DNA from: Candidatus Latescibacterota bacterium
GTDB lineage: Bacteria; Latescibacterota; UBA2968; UBA8231
Direction: 5' to 3'
Length of the DNA: 64,000 nucleotides
NCBI GenBank assembly: GCA_965243025.1
Contig: CBDETY010000003.1
Span: 2,720,001-2,784,000, forward strand
Part shown: piece by piece, positions 38,300 to 59,737 of the stretch
Numbering within the stretch: the first letter of the stretch is position 1
How the letters are laid out: every line of letters begins with the position of its first letter
Notes under the pieces: model-generated
Databases searched by the model: none
What the model was told of the DNA's origin: nothing
The model's input: the letters and a program-made list of their open reading frames with translations, nothing else
Made by a program: the position numbers and the translations under genes

Positions 38300-40228
38300 T
38301 CAGGGGACCTCGGCCCCGAGCTTGCGCCGCAGGCCCTCGTCGTCCGGCGTCAGCTCGAGGGCGCGCCGCCAGTGGGAGGCCGCCTCGTCCTGCTTTCCGA
38401 GCGCGCTGGCGATGTCGCCGGCGTGATCGTAGATGACCGCCAGTTCCTCGTCCTCCTGATCGACGAGCCGCTCGATCGCCTTGGCGAGGAAGCGCTCGGC
38501 CTTCTCGAACTCCCCGAGGCGGTAGTAGGCCCATCCCAGGCTGTCGAGGAAGGCCCCGTTGCCGGGATCTATGGCCACGGCGCGGATCAGCAGGCCGACT
38601 GCTTCCTCGAGATGGATGCCCCGCTCCGCGTACATGTACCCGAGGTAGTTGAGGGCGTATGCGTCTCCGGGATCGAGCTCGATCAGGCGTTGGAAGGCGG
38701 CGATGGCCGCATCGAAGTGAGCCGCCGAGTCGGGCTGGCTGCGCGACGCCTGCTCGAGACAGCTGCCGAGGTAGAACAGCGGAACCGTGTCAGAGCTGTC
38801 GAGCCCGGTCGCCTGCCTCAGCTTCTGTATCGCCTCGTCCCAGCGCCCCAGGTTCTCCAGGGCGATGCCGGAGTGCATGTAGGCCTCACCGAGGACGGCG
38901 TCGTCGGCCGCCTCCCCGGCAGCCTTGTCGAAGAGTTCGAGCGCCTCGAGCCAGCGTTCCTGGCGGCCGAGGACGATTCCCCAGCGTATGAACATCGGCC
39001 CCGGCAGAGCTCCGGCGGCCAGGCCGTGGCGGTAGACCTCGATCGCCTCCTCGTACTGCTCCTGCCGTTCGTGGACGTAGCCCCAGCGCTCGAGCAGATC
39101 GACGTTGCCGGGCTGCCGCTCCAGTCCGCGCCGGAAGGTGGCGGCCGCCTCGTCGTAACGTTCCTGGCGGGCCAGGGCCTGCCCCCAGAACAGGTAGAGA
39201 TCGACGCTGTCCGGCATCGCCTCGACGGCTTCGCCCAAAAGCTTGTCCACGCGCTCGTGGTCCTCGAGGTGCAGGTAGTATCGCGCCGGGTCGAGCCAGG
39301 CCTCGACGCTGGCGGGCTGCAGGCCGACGATGCGCTCGAAAACTGTCGCCGCGAGCTCGTATCGCTCCGCCGCGGCCAGTGCTTCGCCGAGCCGGTACAG
39401 GAACTTGGGATCCGCCTCCTCGAAGCGGGACAGATCCTCGGGGCCCTCGAGCAGGCGCGCGAGTTCCCACATGATCCCCGGGTTTTCCGGAAGGTGATGC
39501 GCCGCGGCGACGAAATACTCGATGCCCCCGTCGCGGTCCCCCCGGGCGAGGTGAATCTCCGCCAGACCGATCCAGGCTTCCTCCGCGCCGGGGTTTTCCC
39601 CGAGGATCCCCCGGAAGATCCCCTCGGCTTTTTCCGGGCGGCCGCTGCGCGAAAGCGTGAACGCTATGTTGACGCGGATGTCCTCGGGGGTGTCCTCCCG
39701 CGACAGGAGATCGTCGAAGAGCCGGTCGATGCGGCCGGTCTCCCCCATTTCCTGGTAGAGACGCGCCAGGTGGGAGTAGAGCGGCCACCGGGCGGGCTGG
39801 CGTGCGATCAGCTGCTCGAGATGGACCGCCGCGGCCCCGAAGTTGCCCGCCGATTCGTACCAGCGGATCAGCTGCAACCGCAACTCGTCGAGGTCCGGGT
39901 CGAGCTCGAGCGCCCTGGCCGCAAACACGATCGCCTGCTCGTAATCCTCGATCTTCTCGTAGTTGTCGGCGAGGCGCGAGTAGATGGTCGGCGACGTCGG
40001 ATCGAGGTCGGCGGCGCTGCGCAGGGCGACAATGGCCCCCAGCGGGTTCTCCTGTTGCTCGAACACTTTCGCCTGCACGAAATACTGCATCGCCCGATCG
40101 GCCTGACGCGACTGCTCCCCTTCCCCCGCCCCGCCCCTGAAACCCGGCCACACGGCGGCGCAGCCTCCGAGGGAACAGTTCGCGGCCACTGCCGCGCTCC
40201 AAATGAAGATCCGGCCGCCCCAGCTCAC
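38300..40228 (-). CDS. TPR-repeat lipoprotein
   Basis: GTG 40228 overlapping the dppC stop; LGG-C lipobox; many TPRs; ALNYLGY, FLDSLGWAYY, IYDHAGD. Confidence 0.88.
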   Translation of the reverse strand: MSWGGRIFIWSAAVAANCSLGGCAAVWPGFRGGAGEGEQSRQADRAMQYFVQAKVFEQQENPLGAIVALRSAADLDPTSPTIYSRLADNYEKIEDYEQAIVFAARALELDPDLDELRLQLIRWYESAGNFGAAAVHLEQLIARQPARWPLYSHLARLYQEMGETGRIDRLFDDLLSREDTPEDIRVNIAFTLSRSGRPEKAEGIFRGILGENPGAEEAWIGLAEIHLARGDRDGGIEYFVAAAHHLPENPGIMWELARLLEGPEDLSRFEEADPKFLYRLGEALAAAERYELAATVFERIVGLQPASVEAWLDPARYYLHLEDHERVDKLLGEAVEAMPDSVDLYLFWGQALARQERYDEAAATFRRGLERQPGNVDLLERWGYVHERQEQYEEAIEVYRHGLAAGALPGPMFIRWGIVLGRQERWLEALELFDKAAGEAADDAVLGEAYMHSGIALENLGRWDEAIQKLRQATGLDSSDTVPLFYLGSCLEQASRSQPDSAAHFDAAIAAFQRLIELDPGDAYALNYLGYMYAERGIHLEEAVGLLIRAVAIDPGNGAFLDSLGWAYYRLGEFEKAERFLAKAIERLVDQEDEELAVIYDHAGDIASALGKQDEAASHWRRALELTPDDEGLRRKLGAEVP

Positions 40229-41091
40229 GCCCCGGTCTCCGCGGTGAGGCCATCCCCGGCGCGCGGATCGAGGAGGTCGCGGAGTCCGTCGCCGAAGAGG
40301 TTGAACCCGAGAGCGACGACGAAGATCGCCAGACCGGGGAATACCATCACCCAGGGCGCCACGATCAGCAGTTCGCGCCCGCTGTTCAACATCGCCCCCC
40401 ATTCGGGGGCCGGGGGCTGGGCTCCCAGTCCGAGAAAGCTGAGCCCGGCCGCGTCGAGGATGGCGGTAGCGAGGCTCAGGCTGCCCTGGACTATCAGGGG
40501 TGCCATGCAGTTCGGCAGGATGGCGCGCAGCACGATGCGCCGGTGCCCCGCTCCCAGAGCCCTCGCCGCCTCGACGTAAGGCATCTGCGCCACCGCGAGA
40601 ACCGTCGCCCGCATCAGGCGCGCGAACTGCGGAACGAGCACGATGCCGACCGCCAGGATCGCGTTGTCGATGCCCGGTCCGATGACGGAGACCACCGCGA
40701 TGGCCAGCAGGATGCTGGGAAAGGCGAGCATCAGGTCGACCACCCTCATCAGGGCGGTGTCGACAGCGCCGCCGAAGTAGCCGGCAGTCACCCCGATCAG
40801 CGTGCCCGAAGTCAGGGCGATGGCGATGCAGACGATCCCGATGCGCAGGGAGATGCGGGCACCGTAGAGGATGCGGCTGAAGATGTCGCGCCCGAACTCG
40901 TCGGTGCCGAGCGGATTCGACAGCGAGGGAGGGGCGAGCCGCTTGTAGAGGTCCTGCTCGAAAGGATCGCTGGGTGCCAGAACCGGCGCCAACAGGGCCG
41001 CGGCAACCAGCCCGGCGACGATCGCGGCTCCGCAGACGGCGAGCGGATGGCGGCGCAGGGACCGCAACGGCGAACGGCTGCTCACCCGCAC
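40225..41091 (-). CDS. Peptide ABC transporter permease (DppC-like); start uncertain
   Basis: LGTDEFGRDIFSR, YVEAARALGA, LSFLGLG.QPP.PEWG, FNLFGDGLRD. Confidence 0.92.
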   Translation of the reverse strand: MRVSSRSPLRSLRRHPLAVCGAAIVAGLVAAALLAPVLAPSDPFEQDLYKRLAPPSLSNPLGTDEFGRDIFSRILYGARISLRIGIVCIAIALTSGTLIGVTAGYFGGAVDTALMRVVDLMLAFPSILLAIAVVSVIGPGIDNAILAVGIVLVPQFARLMRATVLAVAQMPYVEAARALGAGHRRIVLRAILPNCMAPLIVQGSLSLATAILDAAGLSFLGLGAQPPAPEWGAMLNSGRELLIVAPWVMVFPGLAIFVVALGFNLFGDGLRDLLDPRAGDGLTAETGA

Positions 41092-41399
41092 CGGGTCCCG
41101 GAGTTCGGCCGGGACCAGGAGGGCGGCCCCGGGGAAAGCGGAGTCATTTCCGGCATGTTGAGGAGATTTTCTTTCCGTGACGGCGCCGTCGTCCCGGGAG
41201 GACCGTCGCGCCTTGCACGCCAATCAATATAGGGGTTGCCGCCAGGGGCCGGCGGCTGAAGGACAAGACCTGTTTTGCAGGCAAAGTATGCCCGGGGGGT
41301 TACCGGTGAAACGAGTGTGGGTTCAGGAAACATGTTGCCGCAATTCGGCCCCGCTGGTACGGGACAAGCCGGCCTATCAGGGGAAAGAAATCGGATGAG

Positions 41400-49662: not shown

Positions 49663-50097
49663 TCACTTCTCCCACTTCTTGCCGCTCGCATTCGCCCTGG
49701 AGTACTGCTTCCGCTCGGAGCTTTCCGCCCCCTCGAGGACGAAGCCGACAAAGCGCTTCTGCCCCAGCGTCTTCAGGTACTGCAGCAGCGACACTTCCGC
49801 CTCCTTGCGGTCGAGCTTGTACTTGTCGCGCAGCTCCTCGATCATCTGCCCGACCGAGGTGCGGCCGTTGCACATCTGCCAGATATCGGTACCGACCTCA
49901 TCGAGAGTGATGGTGCGCTTCCTGGGGACGTAGAAAAGCTTGGAAAGCAGCCGCACCTTCCAGGAGTCGATGCGGGTGACGGTTATGCGGACCTCGCCGC
50001 TCTCCGTCTTATCCCACTTGAGCAGGTCGTTTCGCGCCGGACGCGAGTTGAGCATCGCCTCGCGCGTCAGCTTCGGTTTCTTGCGGGTGGCAAACAT
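49663..50097 (-). CDS. PqqD-family (RiPP recognition element-like) protein
   Basis: ITLDEVGTDIWQMCNGRTSVGQMIEEL...YLKTL winged-helix pattern. Confidence 0.8.
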   Translation of the reverse strand: MFATRKKPKLTREAMLNSRPARNDLLKWDKTESGEVRITVTRIDSWKVRLLSKLFYVPRKRTITLDEVGTDIWQMCNGRTSVGQMIEELRDKYKLDRKEAEVSLLQYLKTLGQKRFVGFVLEGAESSERKQYSRANASGKKWEK

Positions 50098-51034
50098 AGG
50101 CGGCGCTCAGGCGGTCGGTGAGGTCGTCCCGCTCCTTCTGCCTCTTGTAAAGGTGTTCGACGACGCAGATGCGGTTGCCCTCCTCGCAGTGCCAGACGAG
50201 GGCGTCGAGGTGTTGGCGGGGGCGCGGGTTGAGCAGCGGCAGGGGCCGCAGCAGCTGGCGAAAGCGGCTGCGCGGCCGCCCCGTAACCCGCAGTCCCCGG
50301 TGATCTCCCACTTCGGTCCCGGCGATATCGAAGTTGAAATCGCGCAGCTGCTTGCGGAAGAAGTTGGGGTACCACTCCTGAAGGGTCGTGCCCTTGAGCA
50401 GCATCTGCGCCATGCTGAGGCGCTGCACCCGGCAGCTGTGGTTCTTCCTCTCGAAGGTCATCTGGATGTTGCCGGACTTGAGCTCGTGCTTCGAGAGATT
50501 GAAATCCTCGGGCACCCGGAAGGACATGCCGTAGACGCTCCAGTAGCGCTGCCCGTCGCCGCTGTGGCAGACGACGGAGCGGAAGACGAGGTCGGCGAGC
50601 TCTTCGAGGTTCTCGGTGAGCCGGGCGAGGACCCGCAGCAGGAGAATGCGCCCGCAGACAGGGCAGGCGCGCGCCAGGTTGTAGGCGAGGTAGTCGGCGC
50701 GCCAGGTGAAGGCCTCGTACTCCGAGCCCTCGAGCCAGCGCTTGTCGCGCAGGAACTTCGCCTGCCGGGTCACGGAGAACGGGGTGTCCATCTTCTCCGC
50801 CTTCTTCTCGAGCTTGTCGAGGTAACGCTCCACGAGGTCGGGGACCGGCAGTCTGCGCCCCCGCTCCGGGGTCTCCCGCCACTCGACCTCGGCGCGGACG
50901 ATCTCGGCGTCGTCGAGGCGGGCGTAGCCGCTCTTCGCGTCGCCGTCGACCTTGCCGAGGTTCCACTCGTCCGGAACGCGCAGGAAGATCCCCTGCCATC
51001 CGAAGTCCGCCCACTCGACTCCACGGTCAGCCAT
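50009..51034 (-). CDS. Hypothetical protein with internal duplication and Cys/His motifs
   Basis: Two halves: WQGIFLRVPDEW / VYGMSFRVPEDF, CPVCGRI / CEEGNRI, VVCH / YVCH; co-oriented in operon. Confidence 0.75.
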   Translation of the reverse strand: MADRGVEWADFGWQGIFLRVPDEWNLGKVDGDAKSGYARLDDAEIVRAEVEWRETPERGRRLPVPDLVERYLDKLEKKAEKMDTPFSVTRQAKFLRDKRWLEGSEYEAFTWRADYLAYNLARACPVCGRILLLRVLARLTENLEELADLVFRSVVCHSGDGQRYWSVYGMSFRVPEDFNLSKHELKSGNIQMTFERKNHSCRVQRLSMAQMLLKGTTLQEWYPNFFRKQLRDFNFDIAGTEVGDHRGLRVTGRPRSRFRQLLRPLPLLNPRPRQHLDALVWHCEEGNRICVVEHLYKRQKERDDLTDRLSAAYVCHPQETEADARGDAQLASGAKRPAQVG

Positions 51035-51055
51035 TGGCAACGCACATGTGGGGGA

Positions 51056-53476
51056 TCAGAAGATGAGTACCGAGACCGACTTCTGGATCAGGGCGATGGA
51101 GATCGAGGCCATGCCCATGAGCGCCATGCCGCAGGCGAACCCGACCGCCAGGACCGGCGCGTACAGGCGCCACTCCTTCTTGCCGTACTTGCCCCAGAAA
51201 TAGTAGCGGGCCAGCATGGCGCCGATGACCTCGGTGATCATCCAGTGCGGGATCGTGGTCAGGGCCCGGACGTACCCGAAGACCAGCAGGATCGGCAGCC
51301 CGAACATCGACAGCAGGATGTAGCTCCCCAGGCCGACGACGGCGCCGGCGGCGATGATGTTCGGCTTGATGGCCCGGAACAGCCAGGGCTCGTCGGTGGT
51401 GCGCTGGATCCACGGACTCGAGAAGTTCGGGTCGGTGTCGAGGGCGAAATAGTACTGCCAGCCTTCGGGAAGCGGTTCGGAACGGACCACCATCTCCGGT
51501 CTCGGAATGCGGATGATGCCGACGTCGGCTGTCGGCGCGATCGGCGTCACCCCCGGTCCGGTCAGGGCGACCGCGGCCGCCCCCGGGTCGGGCACCGGCT
51601 TCATGGCGCCTGGGGGATGCTCGGGAATCAGCTCCGGCTCGCCCTCGTCGAAGTGGGTGAAGAAGGCCCGCTTCTCCGACCAGGGGCCGGCCTGCCCCTG
51701 CTTGCCCTTCGACTCGAGCCAGTCGGGGTCGACGGCCCGCACCCGCCAGTACCACCACTCCCCCTCGACCAGGTTCGCCGGCTTCCAGGTCGCCTCGGAG
51801 CGGTCGGGCATGTACTCCATTTCGCTGCGCAGAGTCCCGGTGAACCACAGGCAGGTCTGCAGGGCCTGCAGCCTCCACATCACCTGGGCGTACGGGTACG
51901 ACGCCGACGGAATCGGGGCCAGCTTCCAGACGTAGGAGGAGTACAGGAAGGTGGTGAACAGCACGATCGGCACCATGAAGACCTCGGCCTTGATGATGCT
52001 GGTGAAGCGGGTTCCGGTCAGCTCGATCTCGCGGAACTTCTGACACTGGTTGCCGTAGTTCCCCAGGGGAAACGGGATGAACCAGATGTCGACCCCCTGG
52101 TACCCGGACATGATGATGGTGGCCTCGCGCACGAACGGAATGTCGACGCTCTGTCCCACCATGCCGTAGAGGCGGGCGTTGATGAACGACTGCAGCGGGG
52201 TGAAGACGAAGCCGAAGAACAGGAAGAACCAGATGAAGCTCTTGACCGCCGGCAGCAGGAAGAGAGCGATAAGTATCAGGCCGCTCGTCGCCATCGCGTA
52301 CAGCCCCAGCGCCGTCCACAGGGGGAAATCCCCCCTGCCCTTGGGCACCTCCCAGCTTCTCCTGACCTCCCCGGGCCGGTCCGCCGCAGAGCGGGCGCGT
52401 AGCAGGGCCTGGACGACCTGGTAGATGCCGATGACGGCGATCGCCAGGGTCGTGCCTATGCCGAAGCTCATCCAGAAGTCGACGCTGTTGACGAAGAAGG
52501 TCTCGATCGCCCCCATCCCCGGCTGCCAGATATCGAGATATCCGTACTTGTAGAGGAAGGGGTTGGCGATCGAGTGCGCTACGACCCCGAGGAAGGTCCC
52601 CATCACCCCCCAGAACGGGACTACCAGCCCGGCGAAGATCGGTCCGAGATGGGCGGTGAACCCCAGCGGCGTCGCCGGGATGAAGTTGCCGGTGACCTGG
52701 GTGAAGTCGACGAAGGGGATCGGGATCAGCTGGATCGGTTCGGTCAGCAGGGCCCCGGTGATCGCCGGGATGGCGACGTAGAGGGTGCCGAAGACGAGTC
52801 CGATCATCGCCCCCGCGGAAAACACCCGCCAGCGCCAGGACTCGACTCCCTGGGTGGTCTCGGCCAGGGCCGTGGCCCCCTGGGCCGCCACCGGGGCGAA
52901 GGGAAAGGGCAGGCGCTCGTAGTCGGAGTTGACGCGGAAGAGGGCGTAGGCCGCGGTGAACCAGGAGACGCGGGCGATCACCACCCCGGCCACCAGCAGC
53001 ACGATCGGCAGCAGCCAGTCGGAGTGCAGGAAGGTCCGCTGCAGCAGGGCGGCCGATTCGAGGGGCGGCGCGAACCATTCGGGAATCAGGTTGGCGATGC
53101 CGAACTGCTTGGCCGCCGGGGACTGGCGCAGGTACTGGTTCCACAGCAGGCCCTGGAAGGAGCCGGTCTCGGCGGCGATCAGCCCGGCCGCGACGTAGTA
53201 GAGGACGTAGACTTCCTGCTTCCTCAGCGACGTGAAGGAGCGCTTGGTGATCTCGGCGAACAGGATGATCGTCACCCACTCCGCCGCGGCGCCGAGATTG
53301 CCGCCGACCATCAGTCCCAGGTAGATGTTCCCCGGGATCATGATGAAGGAGACGAAGAGGACGCCGAGGATCGTCTTGGTCGTGAACCCCTCCTCGAAGG
53401 TCGAGGGGGTCTCGAGCAGATCCCGGTACTCTTCTATTTCCGCGTTGGGGTTCTTGTCTTTGCGAAACAGCCTCAC
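51056..53476 (-). CDS. OPT-like (oligopeptide transporter superfamily) polytopic membrane protein with soluble insert
   Basis: Many TMs; YLGLMVG, L.KQE, ERLPFPFAPV...A motifs; about 145-aa hydrophilic insert. Confidence 0.7.
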   Translation of the reverse strand: MRLFRKDKNPNAEIEEYRDLLETPSTFEEGFTTKTILGVLFVSFIMIPGNIYLGLMVGGNLGAAAEWVTIILFAEITKRSFTSLRKQEVYVLYYVAAGLIAAETGSFQGLLWNQYLRQSPAAKQFGIANLIPEWFAPPLESAALLQRTFLHSDWLLPIVLLVAGVVIARVSWFTAAYALFRVNSDYERLPFPFAPVAAQGATALAETTQGVESWRWRVFSAGAMIGLVFGTLYVAIPAITGALLTEPIQLIPIPFVDFTQVTGNFIPATPLGFTAHLGPIFAGLVVPFWGVMGTFLGVVAHSIANPFLYKYGYLDIWQPGMGAIETFFVNSVDFWMSFGIGTTLAIAVIGIYQVVQALLRARSAADRPGEVRRSWEVPKGRGDFPLWTALGLYAMATSGLILIALFLLPAVKSFIWFFLFFGFVFTPLQSFINARLYGMVGQSVDIPFVREATIIMSGYQGVDIWFIPFPLGNYGNQCQKFREIELTGTRFTSIIKAEVFMVPIVLFTTFLYSSYVWKLAPIPSASYPYAQVMWRLQALQTCLWFTGTLRSEMEYMPDRSEATWKPANLVEGEWWYWRVRAVDPDWLESKGKQGQAGPWSEKRAFFTHFDEGEPELIPEHPPGAMKPVPDPGAAAVALTGPGVTPIAPTADVGIIRIPRPEMVVRSEPLPEGWQYYFALDTDPNFSSPWIQRTTDEPWLFRAIKPNIIAAGAVVGLGSYILLSMFGLPILLVFGYVRALTTIPHWMITEVIGAMLARYYFWGKYGKKEWRLYAPVLAVGFACGMALMGMASISIALIQKSVSVLIF

Positions 53477-53518
53477 TTGAGGGTCCCTTTGCTCGCTCCG
53501 TACGCCTGCGGCGGTTCC

Positions 53519-56500
53519 TTACGCCGACACCTCGGTGCGCTCACCTGCGAGGATCTCGTCCCCCTGCTGGCGGTACGCGTCCTTGGCCTCGGCGTCGACG
53601 GTCCGCCAGATCAGGAACTGCTTGCGGATGACGTTCATGAAGCGCTGGTTGACCCGCCGCCAGGAGGCATCCTCGCCGCTGAGGCGGCGGATGTCCAGCG
53701 ATATCGAGTAGATGTTGTGCTCCGACTCCGGGTTTGCCCGGATGACGACGTGCTGGCTCACCCCGAGGTCGAACGGAGCCAGCCAGATGTTCATGTCGAT
53801 CGAGTAGCCCTCGCCGTGCTCCGAGTCGAACCGCTGCAGGGTCGCCCCGTCGGTGTAGAAGGTGCCGATCGACTCCTCGCTGTACGAGTCGAAGTAGCCG
53901 ATCAGGAAGACGCTGAGGCCGACGACGTCGTGCCCGCTGACCGTGAACGGGAACTCGAAATGCCACTCGTCTCCCGACGGGGGCGGCAGGCGCCACTTGC
54001 GGGTGACGTCGGGAACCGCCATCTGCGAGGCCTTGCGGGCCGGGTAGACCGTCGACAGCATGACCACGGCCATCACCAGGATGCAGGACATCACCGCCGA
54101 CAGCGACGAGTAGTTGAGGGTGAAGCCGGCGACCAGGTCGAACTTGATCAGCGTCGTCGCCGTGATCTGCCCGGCGAGGTACCCGGCGACCACCCCGAGG
54201 ACTGCGTAGACGCAGGACTCGGCCATGAACAGCCATGATATGTGGCCCGGTGCCAGTCCGACCGACGAGTAGACGCCGATCTCGCGGAAGCGCTCGTACA
54301 CGCTCCCCATCATCGTGTTCAGCACGATCAGGGCGGCGATCAGGATCGGGATGAACAGGTTGGCCATGCCCGAAAGGGAGGTCATGCCGAGGGAGCTGTA
54401 GATGGAGACGCGGATGTACTCTTCCCCCTCTTCCTGAACCCCGGCGAACAGGGTGACCGCCAGCCGCGACAGGAACTCCTCGATCTCGAGGCGCACCGGG
54501 GCGTCCTCGTCCTCGAAGCGGACCGCCACCGACTGCAGCGGGTTGCCGCTGCCGATGTTGCGCAGGGTGTGGTAGGGGACGATCAGGGTGTTGGCCGGCT
54601 CGAGGTGGACGAACGGCTTGATCACGACCTTGGCGTCCTCGAGGCCCTCCTTCTCCCGCTTCTCCTCCTCGGCCATCTCCTGCACCGCCTGGCCGCCGGT
54701 GACGGCGAAATCGGCGGGAGTCATCATCTCGTCGTCGAGGTCCTTCAGCTGTTTCATCTTCTTCGAGCTGATCACGCCGACGATGCGGAACTGATCGCCG
54801 AACACGCGGACCTCGACGGGCTCTCCGGCGTTCACCGCGGCCAGGTCGACGTCGAGCTTGTCCTGCGTCTCCCCGATCATGTCGTTGGGGATGATGCAGA
54901 CCTTCTCCTCCCCGGGCCGGAACCAGCGCCCCGCCATCACGGCGCGGTTTAGGCCGGTGATCTCGCTCTCCTGCGGGGTCAGGCCGAGCACCCCGAGGGC
55001 GTTATGCTCGCCGACGCCGCGCTTCATCTTGATGTGGGCCTTGGTCCTGTTGTCGTACCAGCTGCGCGGCGCCACCACGGCGCGGTCGCCGAAGTGGCTC
55101 AGGGCGTACTCGTACACCGACTCCTCGAGAGGGGTCCAGGCCTTGCTGCGGATCATGATCCCCTCGTAGAGGCCCTCGTTGTCGCGCTCGATCTGGTTGA
55201 AGCGCAGCGACGTCTGGATCGACGTGAAGGAGAGCACCGTGAAGGTCAGCAGCAGCAGGGTCGTGAACGTGAGAACGGTGCGCAGCTTGCGCCGCTTCAT
55301 GTTGGAGATGCCGAGCAGGAAGGCGGTCAGCGAGGCGCTGGAGCGGGACACGTCGGTGTCGTGAATCACCGCCACCTCGGTGCGCAACTTCTTCATCTGC
55401 TCGTTGAAGCGGCCCGATATCAGCCAGATGACGAGCACGGCCAGCGCCAGGATCACGAAGGCGAGCAGGATCACGAAGGGATTGGAGAGCCGGAAGGCCG
55501 GGTGCACCAGCGACAGGACGACCCAGATGACGATGAAGATGCTGCCGAATCCGAGGATCTGGTTCTTGATCGTCGCCGCGGTGATCAGCAGGCGCTCGGC
55601 GAAGTAGGCGCAGGGCAGGACCAGGGCCATGAAGAAGATGATGCCCCGGATGACGTCGTTCTGCGTCGACTTGACGTCGGGATAGGCGCGCGATTCCAGG
55701 CCGATGGCGGCGCGCGTGTACTTGACGAAGTCACCCCACTGCTTCGATGCCAGCGCCTGCTCCGCCTTTTCGAGCTCCGCCCCGGCGCGCTCGTGCAGGG
55801 CGTTGAGGCGCTGGTTTTCGATCGCGAAGCTCCTCAGCTCGCGCATGCGGGCCTCGTCGAGAGTCCACATGTCCCGGGCGGAGCGGTAGGAGGTGCGCGC
55901 GAAGGAGGTCCCCGGCTGGATGGCGAACCCCGCCCCGAGGGCGAGCTCCTTGTCGTCGGCCGACTCGGAGTTGAGCAGCAGGGAGCGGAACCCGAGGATG
56001 CTGGCGCCGAAGCCGAGCTTGATGATGGTTCCCGGGCGGGCGAACAGCACCCCGACCGCCTCGTCCCTCGCGGAGGGGCCCTCGCCGATGGTGTAGCCGT
56101 ACTCGACCGGCGTCGTGTTGGTCTCGTCGAAGACCGTCACCTGCGAAAGCTTGGTCAGGTAGCGCGGGTCGACGATGTCGAAGAAGTTGAACGACTCGCA
56201 CGGAAACAGCACCACCATCCACTGCTTGTCGCGCCAGTCCATGCTGATCTTCATCGGGTAGGACCCGTCCCCCTGCTCGCCGCGGTCCGGCGCGTAGGTG
56301 ACGCTGCCGGTGGCAGGGTCCATGAAGTACCCCTCGATCTGCACCGAGTTGACGCGAATGCGGTTGTCGAAGAAGGCGCCGTCGGCGTCGACCACCTCGA
56401 AGTGCTCGCCGCGCACCCCCTTGTAGGACTTCTTCTTGCCGTTGCGGACCGCGGCGACCGCCCCGGGCCGCGGCAGGTCGGGAACGATGCTGCGCCTCGG

Positions 56501-58300
56501 GAAAACCATCGTCCTGGCCTTCAGGGTGCGCATGGTGTCCTTCAGGCGCATCTTGAAGTCCGGGAACAGCTCCGGGTCCTCGAAAGCCATGTGGAACATC
56601 CCGGCCAGCGCCCTTATCTGGCGCGCCAGGTTCTCGTGGTTGATCTCGGAGGCGCGGTCGAGCGGGGTGTCGGCGAGAAAGCGGGCGTCGTTCACGGTGA
56701 CGAAGGCCAGGGCCGGCGTGCCGGTGTCGAGGACGAGCTCGCTGTTCACGGAGATCTCGCCGGGAACGAAAGTCTCCCAGCTCTTGCCCCCCTCCGGGCT
56801 GATGCCGTTGACGAGGATGTCGCGGTCGTCGTACCCCAACTCGCGGCTGAGGACGCGGGCGTACGACATGAAGTTCTTGCCGAAGGGAGCGAAGTAGCGC
56901 TTGTAGTAGAAGCTCGTGTTGCTGTTCCAGACCCCGAGCTCGTCGGTCTGCGTCGACAGGTCGAGGCTGACGAACAGCTTGACGTCGAGGGAGTCGACCT
57001 TGGGATCGACCCATTCCTTGTAGAAGGCGAGCCTGAGGTCCTCGTCGTCGGCCAGTTCCTCCCCGAGCTTCTCCAGGCTGGAGAAGGATTCGTCGGCGAC
57101 TGCGAACCGGTCCCCTTCCCGCCGCACCACCTCATCCTCCTCAAGGGCGGCCTCGAGGACGGAACGGACCAGGATCGTATCGGTCTCGGCGATCTCCCGG
57201 ATCAGCCCTTCCTTGCCGTGGAACTCGAGATTCCCCAGCCGGTAGACCACCCCTTCCGACTCTATCAGGCCCCTGGCCAGCGCCGCCTCGACGACCCTGC
57301 GAACGACCATGCGGTCGATGAAGGGGTCCTCCTTGCGCAGGTAGCGCTGGATGAAATCGTCGACGCCGCGCAAGGCGAGATGGTGCGCCGACGTCGCCAG
57401 GAAGATCACCGTCCGCGAGGGCGGATTGTCGCGGAAATACCTGGCTAGCTCGAGCAGGGCGGAGATGCCCGCCGCCTGCTCGGCCCCGGGAGCGAGGGCC
57501 GGCACCACCGACATGGCGTCGTAGTACGCCTCGATGACGATGGTGTCCTCCTTGAGGAGCGGATCGTACCCGGGGATGGCCCCGAGGATGTTCCAGGCCG
57601 GCCGGCGCTCCCAGTCCATGCGGTACTCGAGGTGCACCGGCAGCGAGCCGCCCTCCTGCAGCCGCCCCCGCAGGTTTTCGGCGTCCTGCTTCGAGATCCA
57701 GAAGCGCGGCATGTCGAGCGGCATGGTGAGGAACTTCTTCTCACCCTCGAGATAGACCGTCGAGTCCGGCTCGGCGAACAGGATCGCCTCGGCGCCGAGG
57801 TAGGCGCAGTTCAGCCAGTTGTCGCCGGAGTTGAACTCGAGGAGGACGACCGATCCCTCGATGTCGGTACCCGAGAGCTCGGGAAACTCCCCGGTGCCGC
57901 CGTACACGAGGTGCGCGTCGATGCCGCCGTCGGGAAGGGTGGAGGTGCGCACGAGGTTGGGCCACAGACCGTGAATCGCGAACCGCCCCTCCTCGCCGGG
58001 AACCTCGAGGAATCCCCCCTTCTCCACCGGGATCGAGATGTCGTACTTCTGGAAGGAAATCCCGTCCAGCCCGATCTCGCGGAACTGGTGCTGGATGTAG
58101 AGGGCGGCGGATTCAGCGCCGGGATACCCGGCGACGCGGGAGCCGAGGCCGGAGAAATACCCGATGGTTTCTTCGAGTCGCTGCTTCGGGGCCAGCCGCT
58201 CGAGCGCCCTGAAATCGACTTCGGCGTAAAGGGGCGGGCTCGACCCCAGGATGGCGCTCCCCAGTAGAGCCGTGAGCGCGCTGGCGGGGCGTATTCTCAT
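53519..58300 (-). CDS. 1593-aa fusion: signal peptide, PA domain, non-canonical M28-like domain, MacB/FtsX-type permease
   Basis: SRVAGYPG, PA motif LVYGGTG..., NILGAIPG...LLELAR...RTVIFL; MKRRKLRT TM; LNTMMGSVYERFREIG..SSVGL FtsX motif. Confidence 0.8.
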   Translation of the reverse strand: MRIRPASALTALLGSAILGSSPPLYAEVDFRALERLAPKQRLEETIGYFSGLGSRVAGYPGAESAALYIQHQFREIGLDGISFQKYDISIPVEKGGFLEVPGEEGRFAIHGLWPNLVRTSTLPDGGIDAHLVYGGTGEFPELSGTDIEGSVVLLEFNSGDNWLNCAYLGAEAILFAEPDSTVYLEGEKKFLTMPLDMPRFWISKQDAENLRGRLQEGGSLPVHLEYRMDWERRPAWNILGAIPGYDPLLKEDTIVIEAYYDAMSVVPALAPGAEQAAGISALLELARYFRDNPPSRTVIFLATSAHHLALRGVDDFIQRYLRKEDPFIDRMVVRRVVEAALARGLIESEGVVYRLGNLEFHGKEGLIREIAETDTILVRSVLEAALEEDEVVRREGDRFAVADESFSSLEKLGEELADDEDLRLAFYKEWVDPKVDSLDVKLFVSLDLSTQTDELGVWNSNTSFYYKRYFAPFGKNFMSYARVLSRELGYDDRDILVNGISPEGGKSWETFVPGEISVNSELVLDTGTPALAFVTVNDARFLADTPLDRASEINHENLARQIRALAGMFHMAFEDPELFPDFKMRLKDTMRTLKARTMVFPRRSIVPDLPRPGAVAAVRNGKKKSYKGVRGEHFEVVDADGAFFDNRIRVNSVQIEGYFMDPATGSVTYAPDRGEQGDGSYPMKISMDWRDKQWMVVLFPCESFNFFDIVDPRYLTKLSQVTVFDETNTTPVEYGYTIGEGPSARDEAVGVLFARPGTIIKLGFGASILGFRSLLLNSESADDKELALGAGFAIQPGTSFARTSYRSARDMWTLDEARMRELRSFAIENQRLNALHERAGAELEKAEQALASKQWGDFVKYTRAAIGLESRAYPDVKSTQNDVIRGIIFFMALVLPCAYFAERLLITAATIKNQILGFGSIFIVIWVVLSLVHPAFRLSNPFVILLAFVILALAVLVIWLISGRFNEQMKKLRTEVAVIHDTDVSRSSASLTAFLLGISNMKRRKLRTVLTFTTLLLLTFTVLSFTSIQTSLRFNQIERDNEGLYEGIMIRSKAWTPLEESVYEYALSHFGDRAVVAPRSWYDNRTKAHIKMKRGVGEHNALGVLGLTPQESEITGLNRAVMAGRWFRPGEEKVCIIPNDMIGETQDKLDVDLAAVNAGEPVEVRVFGDQFRIVGVISSKKMKQLKDLDDEMMTPADFAVTGGQAVQEMAEEEKREKEGLEDAKVVIKPFVHLEPANTLIVPYHTLRNIGSGNPLQSVAVRFEDEDAPVRLEIEEFLSRLAVTLFAGVQEEGEEYIRVSIYSSLGMTSLSGMANLFIPILIAALIVLNTMMGSVYERFREIGVYSSVGLAPGHISWLFMAESCVYAVLGVVAGYLAGQITATTLIKFDLVAGFTLNYSSLSAVMSCILVMAVVMLSTVYPARKASQMAVPDVTRKWRLPPPSGDEWHFEFPFTVSGHDVVGLSVFLIGYFDSYSEESIGTFYTDGATLQRFDSEHGEGYSIDMNIWLAPFDLGVSQHVVIRANPESEHNIYSISLDIRRLSGEDASWRRVNQRFMNVIRKQFLIWRTVDAEAKDAYRQQGDEILAGERTEVSA

Positions 58301-58488: not shown

Positions 58489-59001
58489 TCAGCTCCGTTC
58501 GAGGCGCCGCAGCCGGGCGGCGCACCAGTGGGCGACCAGGCCGATCGCAAAGCCGCTGACCAGTCCCGTGAGCATGAAGAGGGGCAGGAAGGCGAGCAGG
58601 CCGGAGTGATTGAGGTAGACGCGGGCGATGAGCAGCTGGATCAGCTGATGGGTGACCGCTCCGAGAACGCTCAACCCGACCAGACTGAAAACACCCGGGG
58701 CCAGGCGGTGGGCCAGCGCCATGGCGGTCACGCTGGCGATTCCGGCTCCCCCGCCGATGGCGAAGGCCGGACTGCCGAAACCGCCGCTCACCAGGCCGCC
58801 GGCGGCGATCTTGACCACGGCGACCGCGATGGCGGGAAGCCCCCCGAAAAGCTCGAGGGCGACGACGACGGGAAGGTTCCCGAGTCCCAGCTTCATCCAC
58901 GGAAGGGGCCGGGGCGCCACCGCCTCCAGGAGGAAGAGGACCAGGCCGGCGCCGGCGAGCAGGCCGAGCCGGGTCAGCTGCCTTGCGGACATCGGCGGCA
59001 T
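58489..59001 (-). CDS. Gx transporter / heptaprenyl diphosphate synthase component I family membrane protein
   Basis: LE...P.PLPWMKLGLGNL, GLSVLGAVTH.L.Q. Confidence 0.8.
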   Translation of the reverse strand: MPPMSARQLTRLGLLAGAGLVLFLLEAVAPRPLPWMKLGLGNLPVVVALELFGGLPAIAVAVVKIAAGGLVSGGFGSPAFAIGGGAGIASVTAMALAHRLAPGVFSLVGLSVLGAVTHQLIQLLIARVYLNHSGLLAFLPLFMLTGLVSGFAIGLVAHWCAARLRRLERS

Positions 59002-59005
59002 CCGC

Positions 59006-59407
59006 TCAGCCGCTGAAGGCGTCTACGCCGCCGGGCCGCTTCGGGGAGCGCTCCCCGCGCAGGAGCAGGACCATCCCGTTCGGGACGCAGGCGGCGATCT
59101 CCCCGATACCCTCGATCCACCCGGCGAGGACGCAGATGCGGTTGCGGCACCCGGCTTCGGCGAAGCGGGCGGCCCCGTCGCGGACCTCGATCACCACTTC
59201 ACCGGTGCGGGCCCGCAGGACCTGCCTGCCGTTCCTGTCCAGCGGAAAAACCGCCACTTCCCTGCCCTCGACCTCGACCACGGCGACCGAAGCCGCGGCG
59301 GCCGGGGGCTGCCTCCAGGCCGCCAGCAAGGCTGCGGCGGCGACCGCCAGGATCAGGGCGGCGTCCCCGGGGGTAAGGATTCTCCTCAGTTCGAACCAGT
59401 CTCGCAT
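59006..59407 (-). CDS. NusG domain II-containing (DUF1312-like) membrane-anchored protein
   Basis: GD...I TM; C.NRICV..GWI...GE..ACVPN; ends GVDAFSG; ATG 59407. Confidence 0.82.
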   Translation of the reverse strand: MRDWFELRRILTPGDAALILAVAAAALLAAWRQPPAAAASVAVVEVEGREVAVFPLDRNGRQVLRARTGEVVIEVRDGAARFAEAGCRNRICVLAGWIEGIGEIAACVPNGMVLLLRGERSPKRPGGVDAFSG

Positions 59408-59737
59408 GGTCTGCACGGGTGGCCGGAAATTTCCGGATTGCGCGGGTAATGTACGGGTTTGGCCTCGGGAGCCGCCCCGTCCCCCGTTCCGTGCCCGCCC
59501 TCCTTCCCCCGCCCTCTCCTCTGCCGGGCAACTCCCCTCCTCGCCCGGGAACCGCGCCAAAGACGGATTGTCCATGGGTACCTGCTCCGATAACCCGAGG
59601 GGTCCGAATCCTCCGCGAGGCTCATATCAACCGTTCCTGGGATGGCGTAACCTGTTGTTCCTGTTCATCATGCGGTATTTCTCCCTTTTTTCGGGGACCC
59701 CGCTTGGATATATTGAGGGTCAGCGGAAGGAATTTCA

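Follow-up and report, generated by a model that had tools for sequence, protein, structure and literature searches.

Which process do four co-oriented genes of a Candidatus Latescibacterota genome serve together, and what would energise it? The genes, P0001 to P0004, are the four minus-strand open reading frames (ORFs) listed within positions 49663–58300 of the window, the whole 64-kb stretch of contig CBDETY010000003.1 that was analysed. They encode a very large protein with a peptidase-like ectodomain and an FtsX-type permease (P0001, here called the giant), an OPT-like membrane protein (P0002), a tandem-domain protein (P0003) and a PqqD-domain protein (P0004). A sequence-only reading had proposed that they form an envelope complex, possibly energised by the OPT-like subunit instead of ATP. 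Comparison across genomes makes it likely that the modules form one ATP-coupled system. The fuller proposal, that the four genes are the local share of a conserved multi-gene envelope system centred on an ATP-binding cassette (ABC) mechanotransducer of type VII and operating as modelled below, is favoured by a modest balance of the evidence.

A candidate motor was found by comparison of gene neighbourhoods. The loci of two deep Latescibacterota families (L023 in f8 and L028 in f12) share the order TPR gene, giant, OPT-like gene, P0003, PqqD gene, small FtsX gene (sFtsX; 228–229 aa, FtsX domain only) and LolD/MacB-type ABC ATPase. The genome under study holds an orthologous sFtsX–ATPase pair in single copy at C3:4455966-4457492, 1.68 Mb from the window locus, with 58% (sFtsX) and 75–77% (ATPase) identity to the f8 and f12 proteins. 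Its ATPase gene (C3:4456704-4457492) encodes intact Walker A, LSGG signature, Walker B D-E-P and H-loop motifs; the best NCBIfam matches (LolD, MacB, YbbA, DarD, DevA and FtsE) were all below cut-off. The sFtsX protein comprises 234 aa with four helices and a 47-aa outer loop. Because the pair is kept elsewhere in the genome, the idea of an ATPase-free system is unsupported. On sequence grounds, the cognate ATPase that defines a type VII ABC system can be assigned to the system, not to this locus. A plain FtsEX identity for the pair was considered and rejected as unlikely: the FtsX and FtsE models were below cut-off, and no full-length sFtsX match was present in five genomes of family f10 that are at least 93% complete.

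Species genomes were scanned with a 10-sequence profile of the P0002 family, and 80 loci were kept and grouped by record label and similarity. These comprised 36 Latescibacterota-type loci, two from Armatimonadetes and 42 with Desulfobacterota or 'delta/Proteobacteria' labels. Neighbours were counted by tblastn at E 1e-6 or better among loci with enough flank (5 kb upstream for the giant, 8 kb upstream for the ATPase and 3.5 kb downstream for P0003 or P0004). In Desulfobacterota-type loci a giant lay upstream in 26/27, an ATPase of at least 60% identity upstream in 23/25 and a P0003- or P0004-like gene downstream in 16/28. The corresponding counts were 25/26, 0/23 and 11/31 for Latescibacterota-type loci, and 2/2, 0/1 and 0/2 for Armatimonadetes. 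Identities of only 21–35% make the Desulfobacterota P0003/P0004 count a lower bound. The Desulfobacterota-type order is sFtsX, ATPase, giant, DUF6785/6784, OPT-like gene, then P0003-like and PqqD genes. One Desulfobacterales locus annotated with Pfam reads ATPase, giant (M28, MacB_PCD, FtsX), DUF6785/6784, P0002-family gene, a 218-aa unknown, P0003-like gene and PqqD. The gene between giant and OPT-like gene was DUF6785/6784 in all three Desulfobacterota-type loci checked. P0003 homologues of the two phyla are 21–26% identical, and the Desulfobacterales P0003-like protein matched P0003 in hhalign with 99.2% probability (E 2e-19). A LolD/MacB-type ATPase in homologous loci, which the sequence-only reading had itself taken as speaking against its proposal, is therefore what f8, f12 and the Desulfobacterota-type loci contain, and energising by the OPT-like subunit instead of ATP is not supported.

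Co-occurrence within the phylum was assessed in 168 Latescibacterota genomes of 14 families (f1–f14). P0003 was present in 149/168 and sFtsX in 147/168, each in one copy in nearly all. Both were absent from all 13 genomes of f10. In the five f10 genomes of at least 93% completeness no P0002 relative was found (0/5), and giant and sFtsX queries returned only generic FtsX-domain matches in frames of 411–482 aa. Outside f10, genomes discordant for P0003 and sFtsX were mostly incomplete, the nine listed being 60–91% complete. Twenty loci around P0003, hand-chosen across 11 of the 14 families, were compared by tblastn. All four genes were colinear in eight of them (6/6 from f1, one from f8 and one from f12). 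sFtsX adjoins P0003 in f11 and in three further f12 genomes; by coordinates it lies 13 kb away in f9.

Copy number differs between the modules. This genome holds seven giants and five P0002-family genes, and P0003–P0004 is single-copy. Of the seven giants, four stand beside a P0002-family gene, a fifth precedes a DUF6785/6784 gene, a sixth is fused to DUF6785 and DUF6784, and the last has neither. The fusion, paralogue D, is a 2287-aa open frame at C3:562835-569698. Five other genomes of the phylum each had at least one adjacent giant/OPT-like pair away from P0003–P0004. The claim that the genes belong to one conserved, apparently uncharacterised envelope system is upheld by the colinear loci (8/20), the Desulfobacterota-type clusters and the giant–permease fusion, which also points to a physical association of the OPT-fold permease with the giant.

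The giant has a signal-peptide-like N-terminus, an ectodomain, three transmembrane (TM) helices, a MacB-type unit (TM1, putative outer domain, TM2–4) and a cytoplasmic tail; seven hydrophobic segments were found. It matched Pfam Peptidase_M28 at 32.2 bits (cut-off 21.3), in part only (profile positions 1–78 of 193), and FtsX (PF02687) at 55.1 bits (cut-off 25.5). MacB_PCD scored 20.6 bits, below the cut-off of 27, with a stretch of about 280 aa between hydrophobic segments 1006–1024 and 1304–1334. The two matches above cut-off bear out the earlier description of a peptidase-like domain fused to a MacB/FtsX permease. A search of PDB sequences with the C-terminal half returned MacB (5lil, E 6.8e-10), YtrF, LolC and LolF chains. 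A loop motif, ERFREIG, at aa 1336 is identical in sFtsX. The C-terminal domain had no Pfam match and, by hhalign, no relation to P0003 (probability 0.6%).

An AlphaFold2 model of the ectodomain (predicted local distance difference test, pLDDT, 82.9; predicted template modelling score, pTM, 0.85) was searched with Foldseek. Its first 580 or so residues matched 2ek8 (E 4e-21), 6hc6, PaAP, the transferrin receptor and GCPII, at E 4e-21 to 1e-15; the M28 fold with a PA insert is common to all of these and the giant. M28 enzymes carry their zinc ligands and catalytic Glu in the motifs HxD, D, EE, D/E and H. Relative to the Bacillus/Aneurinibacillus enzymes 6hc6 and 2ek8, P0001 has AYYD for AHYD, Glu for the bridging Asp and AHH for AEE. 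Fifteen giants were aligned (P0001, six paralogues and eight orthologues). In contrast to the PA-domain aminopeptidases, all 15 have Tyr or Phe for the metal-ligand His, His for the first (catalytic) Glu, and His-His/Phe/Tyr for the Glu-Glu pair. We take LDLS and DTPLD to be the last two motifs, following the family pattern. As the canonical catalytic residues are replaced throughout, the M28-like domain is, as judged from the alignment, not a canonical aminopeptidase, and the ectodomain is probably a non-catalytic binding domain. The replacement residues are themselves conserved, so the site may be a remodelled metal site. The transferrin receptor is an M28-fold binding domain, which the giant's ectodomain may resemble.

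P0002 had been called OPT-like. This holds by transitive homology and does not hold for the protein itself, which had no match in Pfam at E up to 0.1, OPT (PF03169) included, and none in NCBIfam. It has 969 relatives among 1.84 billion sequence representatives. Ten remote relatives of about 630 aa were hand-picked from the lower part of that list; three pass Pfam OPT (64.2, 33 and 29 bits against 25.8) and one falls just below (24.6). P0002 is homologous over its full core to such OPT-passing proteins. A 24-sequence profile of the family matched a DUF6785/DUF6784 protein of the same genome in hhalign (probability 92%, E 6.5e-7, 318 columns). Together these matches identify P0002, at the sequence level, as a divergent OPT-superfamily permease with superfamily-level kinship only. 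It differs from OPT transporters in matching no Pfam model and in carrying a soluble insert that is absent from its paralogues of about 650 aa and from Desulfobacterota homologues. No solved structure was matched by the family profile in the PDB sequence search (0 matches at E up to 1). The related DUF6785/DUF6784 family has 49 genes in this genome (tblastn matches of 400 aa or longer). Enolase-superfamily, UxuA, aldo-keto reductase, epimerase, CBM9 and FG-GAP/ASPIC genes repeatedly adjoin them, as do two unnamed families. The recurrence of sugar-acid and carbohydrate enzymes beside these paralogues suggests a role of the family in taking up nutrients at loci for carbohydrate or sugar-acid catabolism.

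P0003 carries neither a signal nor a TM segment and would therefore be cytoplasmic. Its AlphaFold2 model (pLDDT 86.7, pTM 0.82) consists of two similar, tandem beta-rich domains. Foldseek matched Tli4/TplEi, PsbP, Mog1, Tsi3 and the Eag chaperone SciW (E 1e-6 to 5e-4), with target-normalised TM scores of 0.5–0.64 for PsbP, Mog1 and Tsi3 and only 0.3–0.4 over the whole protein. As modelled, P0003 is a tandem PsbP/Mog1/DUF1795-like fold. Unlike the proteins of that fold, it belongs to no Pfam or NCBIfam family, and its protein-atlas relatives are all unnamed clusters, from Gemmatimonadota-labelled, Armatimonadota and Thermodesulfobacteriota records. Its earlier description as a duplicated Cys/His protein stands as to the duplication; Cys and His are no family feature, none being invariant among 21 orthologues.

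P0004 matched Pfam PqqD at 51 bits (cut-off 23.4), in keeping with the RRE-like protein that had been proposed. PqqD domains, or recognition elements (RREs) of ribosomally synthesized and post-translationally modified peptides (RiPPs), bind leader peptides. All NCBIfam PqqD equivalogues stayed below cut-off (lasso-peptide PqqD 32.7 bits against 80; pyrroloquinoline quinone PqqD 30.3 against 46). P0004 also differs from the PqqD proteins of RiPP systems in its constant partner P0003 and in an N-terminal extension of its own, in which R12, P20, R22, N23 and W28 are invariant among 18 aligned orthologues. A RiPP cluster was rejected, as the ten neighbouring genes scanned include no precursor and no maturase and no PqqD equivalogue was above cut-off. 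Most P0004 orthologues also carry a C-terminal A-S-G-K-x-W motif outside the PqqD domain.

The analysis shows which genes are present, their folds, their co-occurrence, the fusion and an ATPase orthologue whose motifs are intact; binding partners, a transport direction and a substrate we infer as follows. The giant would be one FtsX-type half-permease with a large periplasmic PA/M28-like, probably non-catalytic binding domain. It would pair with the minimal 234-aa FtsX protein and the LolD/MacB-type ATPase encoded 1.68 Mb away, which, being single-copy, are probably common to all seven giant paralogues. ATP hydrolysis would move the ectodomain, so that ligand is captured or handed to the adjacent OPT-fold permease. 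P0002 would move the ligand through the inner membrane, most probably inwards. In the cytoplasm, P0003 and P0004 would be accessory to the shared core, in the role of adaptor or chaperone. Import is favoured because characterised OPTs are importers, giant/OPT-like cassettes are multi-copy and DUF6785 paralogues adjoin sugar-acid and carbohydrate enzymes. The specific capture-and-import model is nevertheless tentative, and we rate it at less than an even chance. Its substrate would be peptide-like or another nutrient oligomer, 'peptide' deriving from family names only; the peptidase-like domain lacks the canonical catalytic residues, and free-standing DUF6785 paralogues adjoin sugar-acid enzymes.

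LolCDE is among the closest known systems. Like it, the giant has an FtsX-type unit of four helices, with a putative periplasmic domain lying between TM1 and TM2; the ATPase is LolD/MacB-like, and two unlike FtsX proteins are encoded with one ATPase. The ER.REIG loop motif is present in both FtsX-type proteins here. In contrast to LolCDE, one partner is minimal (47-aa outer loop), and the giant (1593 aa) carries an M28-like ectodomain of 880 aa, three additional TM helices and a C-terminal domain in the cytoplasm. OPT-fold permeases are encoded with the system, NCBIfam Lol models score far below cut-off, and the heterodimer is predicted. Two reports (PMC12646458, PMC11491553) describe FtsEX-EnvC and YbbAP-TesA, in which a type VII ABC motor works with a hydrolase of the periplasm. 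As in these and FtsEX-PcsB, a cytoplasmic ATPase would here influence a hydrolase-fold domain in the periplasm by way of an FtsX-type protein. In contrast to them, the hydrolase-like domain is fused to the permease and lacks canonical catalytic residues, and the FtsX and FtsE models are below cut-off.

Several observations weigh against the proposed system. The joint absence from f10 concerns one clade and is possibly a single evolutionary event. In nine of the 20 hand-chosen loci (f2, f3, f4 and f9) P0003 and P0004 are together or within 3 kb of each other with no giant or OPT-like gene in the stretch, and in three (f7, f13 and f14) P0003 occurs without a P0004 detected by tblastn. Paralogue B, a giant of 69% identity, has no OPT-fold neighbour of either type. 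No ATPase lies within 8 kb upstream in the 23 Latescibacterota-type loci or beside the giant in this genome, where ATP coupling would rest on orthology and co-occurrence. The interactions between the components are likewise predicted. The known type VII ABC systems extrude, extract or activate, and we know of none that imports. A cytoplasmic pair of PqqD and chaperone-like proteins would also suit export or maturation better than import.

An export or maturation machine is accordingly the alternative that survives best, although we consider it unlikely. P0004 and P0003 would bind either a peptide or a hydrophobic stretch of protein and pass it on to the membrane complex, and the ABC motor and ectodomain would extract, process or release it outside in the manner of LolCDE or MacB, with the OPT-fold protein as conduit or scaffold. 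Leader-peptide binding by PqqD/RRE domains fits this, as does the resemblance of P0003 to DUF1795 Eag chaperones such as SciW, which was matched in complex with a transmembrane domain. As far as is known, type VII ABC systems that have been characterised all act outwards, and P0003–P0004 lie directly beside sFtsX–ATPase in f8, f11 and f12. However, none of the ten neighbours scanned looks like a precursor gene or encodes a maturase such as a radical SAM enzyme or cyclase, and the PqqD equivalogues of known RiPP systems are all below cut-off. Leader cleavage outside is unlikely for an M28-like domain without its catalytic Glu. The multi-copy giant/OPT-like pairs, with paralogues near sulfatase, FGE-sulfatase and ExbBD genes, have the look of nutrient acquisition.

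A second alternative is that there is no single system: giant and OPT-like protein would form a nutrient module, and P0003–P0004, with or without sFtsX–ATPase, an unrelated housekeeping pair adjacent by chance in some lineages. The separation of P0003–P0004 from giant/OPT-like pairs in f2, f3, f4 and f9, the differing copy numbers (one against up to seven) and the incomplete downstream counts (11/31 Latescibacterota-type and 16/28 Desulfobacterota-type loci) would be explained in this way. We regard it as very unlikely, since adjacency recurs in two phyla whose P0003 homologues are only 21–26% identical, a level at which tblastn undercounts; all modules are jointly absent from f10, and the phyla that supply the atlas relatives of P0003 also hold the system.

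An FtsEX-like regulator instead of a transporter appears highly improbable. In it the motor would do no more than switch the M28-like domain in the periplasm, or a partner bound to it, for envelope remodelling, and the OPT-fold permease would recycle the released fragments. FtsEX-EnvC and YbbAP-TesA are precedents, and a hydrolase-like domain is fused to an FtsX protein here. But the canonical catalytic residues are missing from 15/15 giants, seven paralogues in one genome and the absence from the whole of f10 argue against a core envelope role, and sFtsX–ATPase is not a canonical FtsEX, both models being below cut-off. The most improbable alternative is the self-contained, ATPase-free four-protein complex driven by an ion gradient through its OPT-like subunit, as first proposed: the ATPase-free surroundings (ten neighbours scanned here and 0/23 Latescibacterota-type loci) and the recognised class of orphan FtsX permeases such as the ADOP family of NCBIfam agree with it, but the dedicated pair of ATPase and small FtsX next to the genes in f8 and f12, the ATPase upstream in 23/25 Desulfobacterota-type loci, the intact-looking orthologues in this genome, their co-occurrence with P0003 across the phylum and the ERFREIG motif that the giant keeps in common with sFtsX do not.

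The components of the ATP-coupled system proposed here come from known superfamilies (type VII ABC, OPT, M28, PqqD and PsbP/Mog1). Their combination is in no paper found: a literature search whose coverage excluded supplements and subscription journals returned none on the gene set, nor any with DUF6785, DUF6784 or PF20581. Type VII ABC systems (MacB, LolCDE, FtsEX, YbbAP) are few, each with a distinct envelope mechanism; this one would add another, and would be the first tied to OPT-fold permeases, natural fusions included. The system is widespread in Latescibacterota and Desulfobacterota and was seen in Armatimonadota. It would provide a testable context for four families without assigned function (DUF6785, DUF6784 and the P0002 and P0003 families) and a use of the PqqD domain other than in RiPP biosynthesis. 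Experiments are feasible in carriers that have been cultured (Desulfogranum marinum DSM 2058, Desulfacinum hydrothermale DSM 13146 and Desulfovibrio sp. DV). A bolder, distinctly unlikely extension is a new class of ABC-dependent uptake machine, in which a shared type VII motor and a PqqD/PsbP-like receiving pair serve interchangeable cassettes of giant and OPT-fold permease, and mechanotransmission gates import through a secondary-transporter fold. The arrangement it would replace is a binding protein with a type I/II importer.

The layout of the locus is given in Table 1. The earlier account of four co-oriented genes with gaps of 42 bp, about 20 bp and an overlap agrees with the ORF coordinates: 42 bp between P0001 and P0002, 15 bp between P0002 and P0003 (21 bp if P0003 starts at the ATG at codon 3) and an 89-bp overlap of P0003 and P0004. 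Third-position GC is 0.87–0.93 in all four ORFs, the coding signature of this 67% GC genome; GC in the window is 62–71%. A promoter scan of the locus returned no promoter-like site, and terminator-like sites numbered 8 against 5.6 ± 2.5 expected.

Table 1. Positions of the four genes and their parts in the 64-kb window.
Feature	Position	Strand	Description
P0001 (giant)	53519..58300	-	1593 aa; ORF with Pfam M28, MacB_PCD and FtsX
P0001 ectodomain, aa 1-880	55661..58300	-	M28 fold with PA insert and non-canonical metal site; then a beta-rich and helical part without match
P0001 membrane module, aa 881-1418	54047..55660	-	three additional TM helices plus one four-helix unit of FtsX/MacB type with putative periplasmic domain
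P0001 cytoplasmic C-terminal domain, aa 1419-1593	53522..54046	-	175 aa; conserved in 15/15 aligned giants
P0002	51056..53476	-	806 aa; polytopic membrane protein, predicted divergent OPT-superfamily branch related to DUF6785
P0002 soluble insert, about aa 556-700	51377..51811	-	about 145 aa; lineage-specific; tblastn/phmmer matches split into 1 to about 550 and about 690 to 806
P0003	50009..51040	-	343 aa; predicted cytoplasmic, tandem PsbP/Mog1/DUF1795-like protein; single copy
P0004	49663..50097	-	144 aa; PqqD/RRE-like with conserved N-terminal extension
PqqD domain of P0004, aa 56-117	49747..49932	-	Pfam match

Ten neighbouring genes of the window were scanned, among them a RecD2 helicase, a weak PAP2-like gene, a PF07456 membrane protein, a NusG_II protein, RelA/SpoT and an aminotransferase. 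None encodes an ABC ATPase, radical SAM enzyme, cyclase or precursor, and the statement that no ATPase or radical SAM gene is adjacent is correct over this range. Immediately upstream of P0001, and likewise on the minus strand (58489-59575), are the PF07456 (Hpre_diP_synt_I) membrane protein and the NusG_II-domain protein; RelA/SpoT is divergent. Other f1 loci show ORFs of like size and a divergent ORF of about 750 aa upstream of the giant (sizes only, unannotated). An OppC-type permease gene (BPD_transp_1 and OppC_N) at 40225-41223, also on the minus strand, indicates that a conventional peptide ABC importer is encoded in the window as well.

Other giants of the genome have varied surroundings. 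The paralogue B giant is followed by a 944-aa UPF0182 membrane protein (C3:6089150-6091984) in place of an OPT-fold gene. Between C3:6184000 and 6203999 the order is a 954-aa TPR/YfiO-like protein, ExbB, ExbD, ExbD, an unknown, a PPIase, an OPT-like gene, an FGE-sulfatase, a giant and a weak DUF4350-like gene. Two further giant paralogues also have ExbD-like and ExbB-like genes nearby. Immediately downstream of a different giant/OPT-like pair lies C3:1750751-1752257, which encodes a DnaJ-domain protein, a CesT/YbjN-like protein and PspA/IM30.

Metagenome runs from 14 studies contain sequence near-identical to 49663–58300; several bear the label sponge metagenome and one the label coral metagenome. 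The organism may be associated with invertebrates. All four genes are covered by contigs from four RNA libraries (three studies). Contig X17 bridges the P0004/P0003 and P0003/P0002 junctions (4 and 15 differing letters), and X19, from a relative, bridges P0002/P0001. RNA libraries can hold DNA, and X17 covers the flanks too, so these contigs are compatible with expression rather than proof of it. One RNA-library contig also bridges P0001 and its upstream same-strand neighbour.

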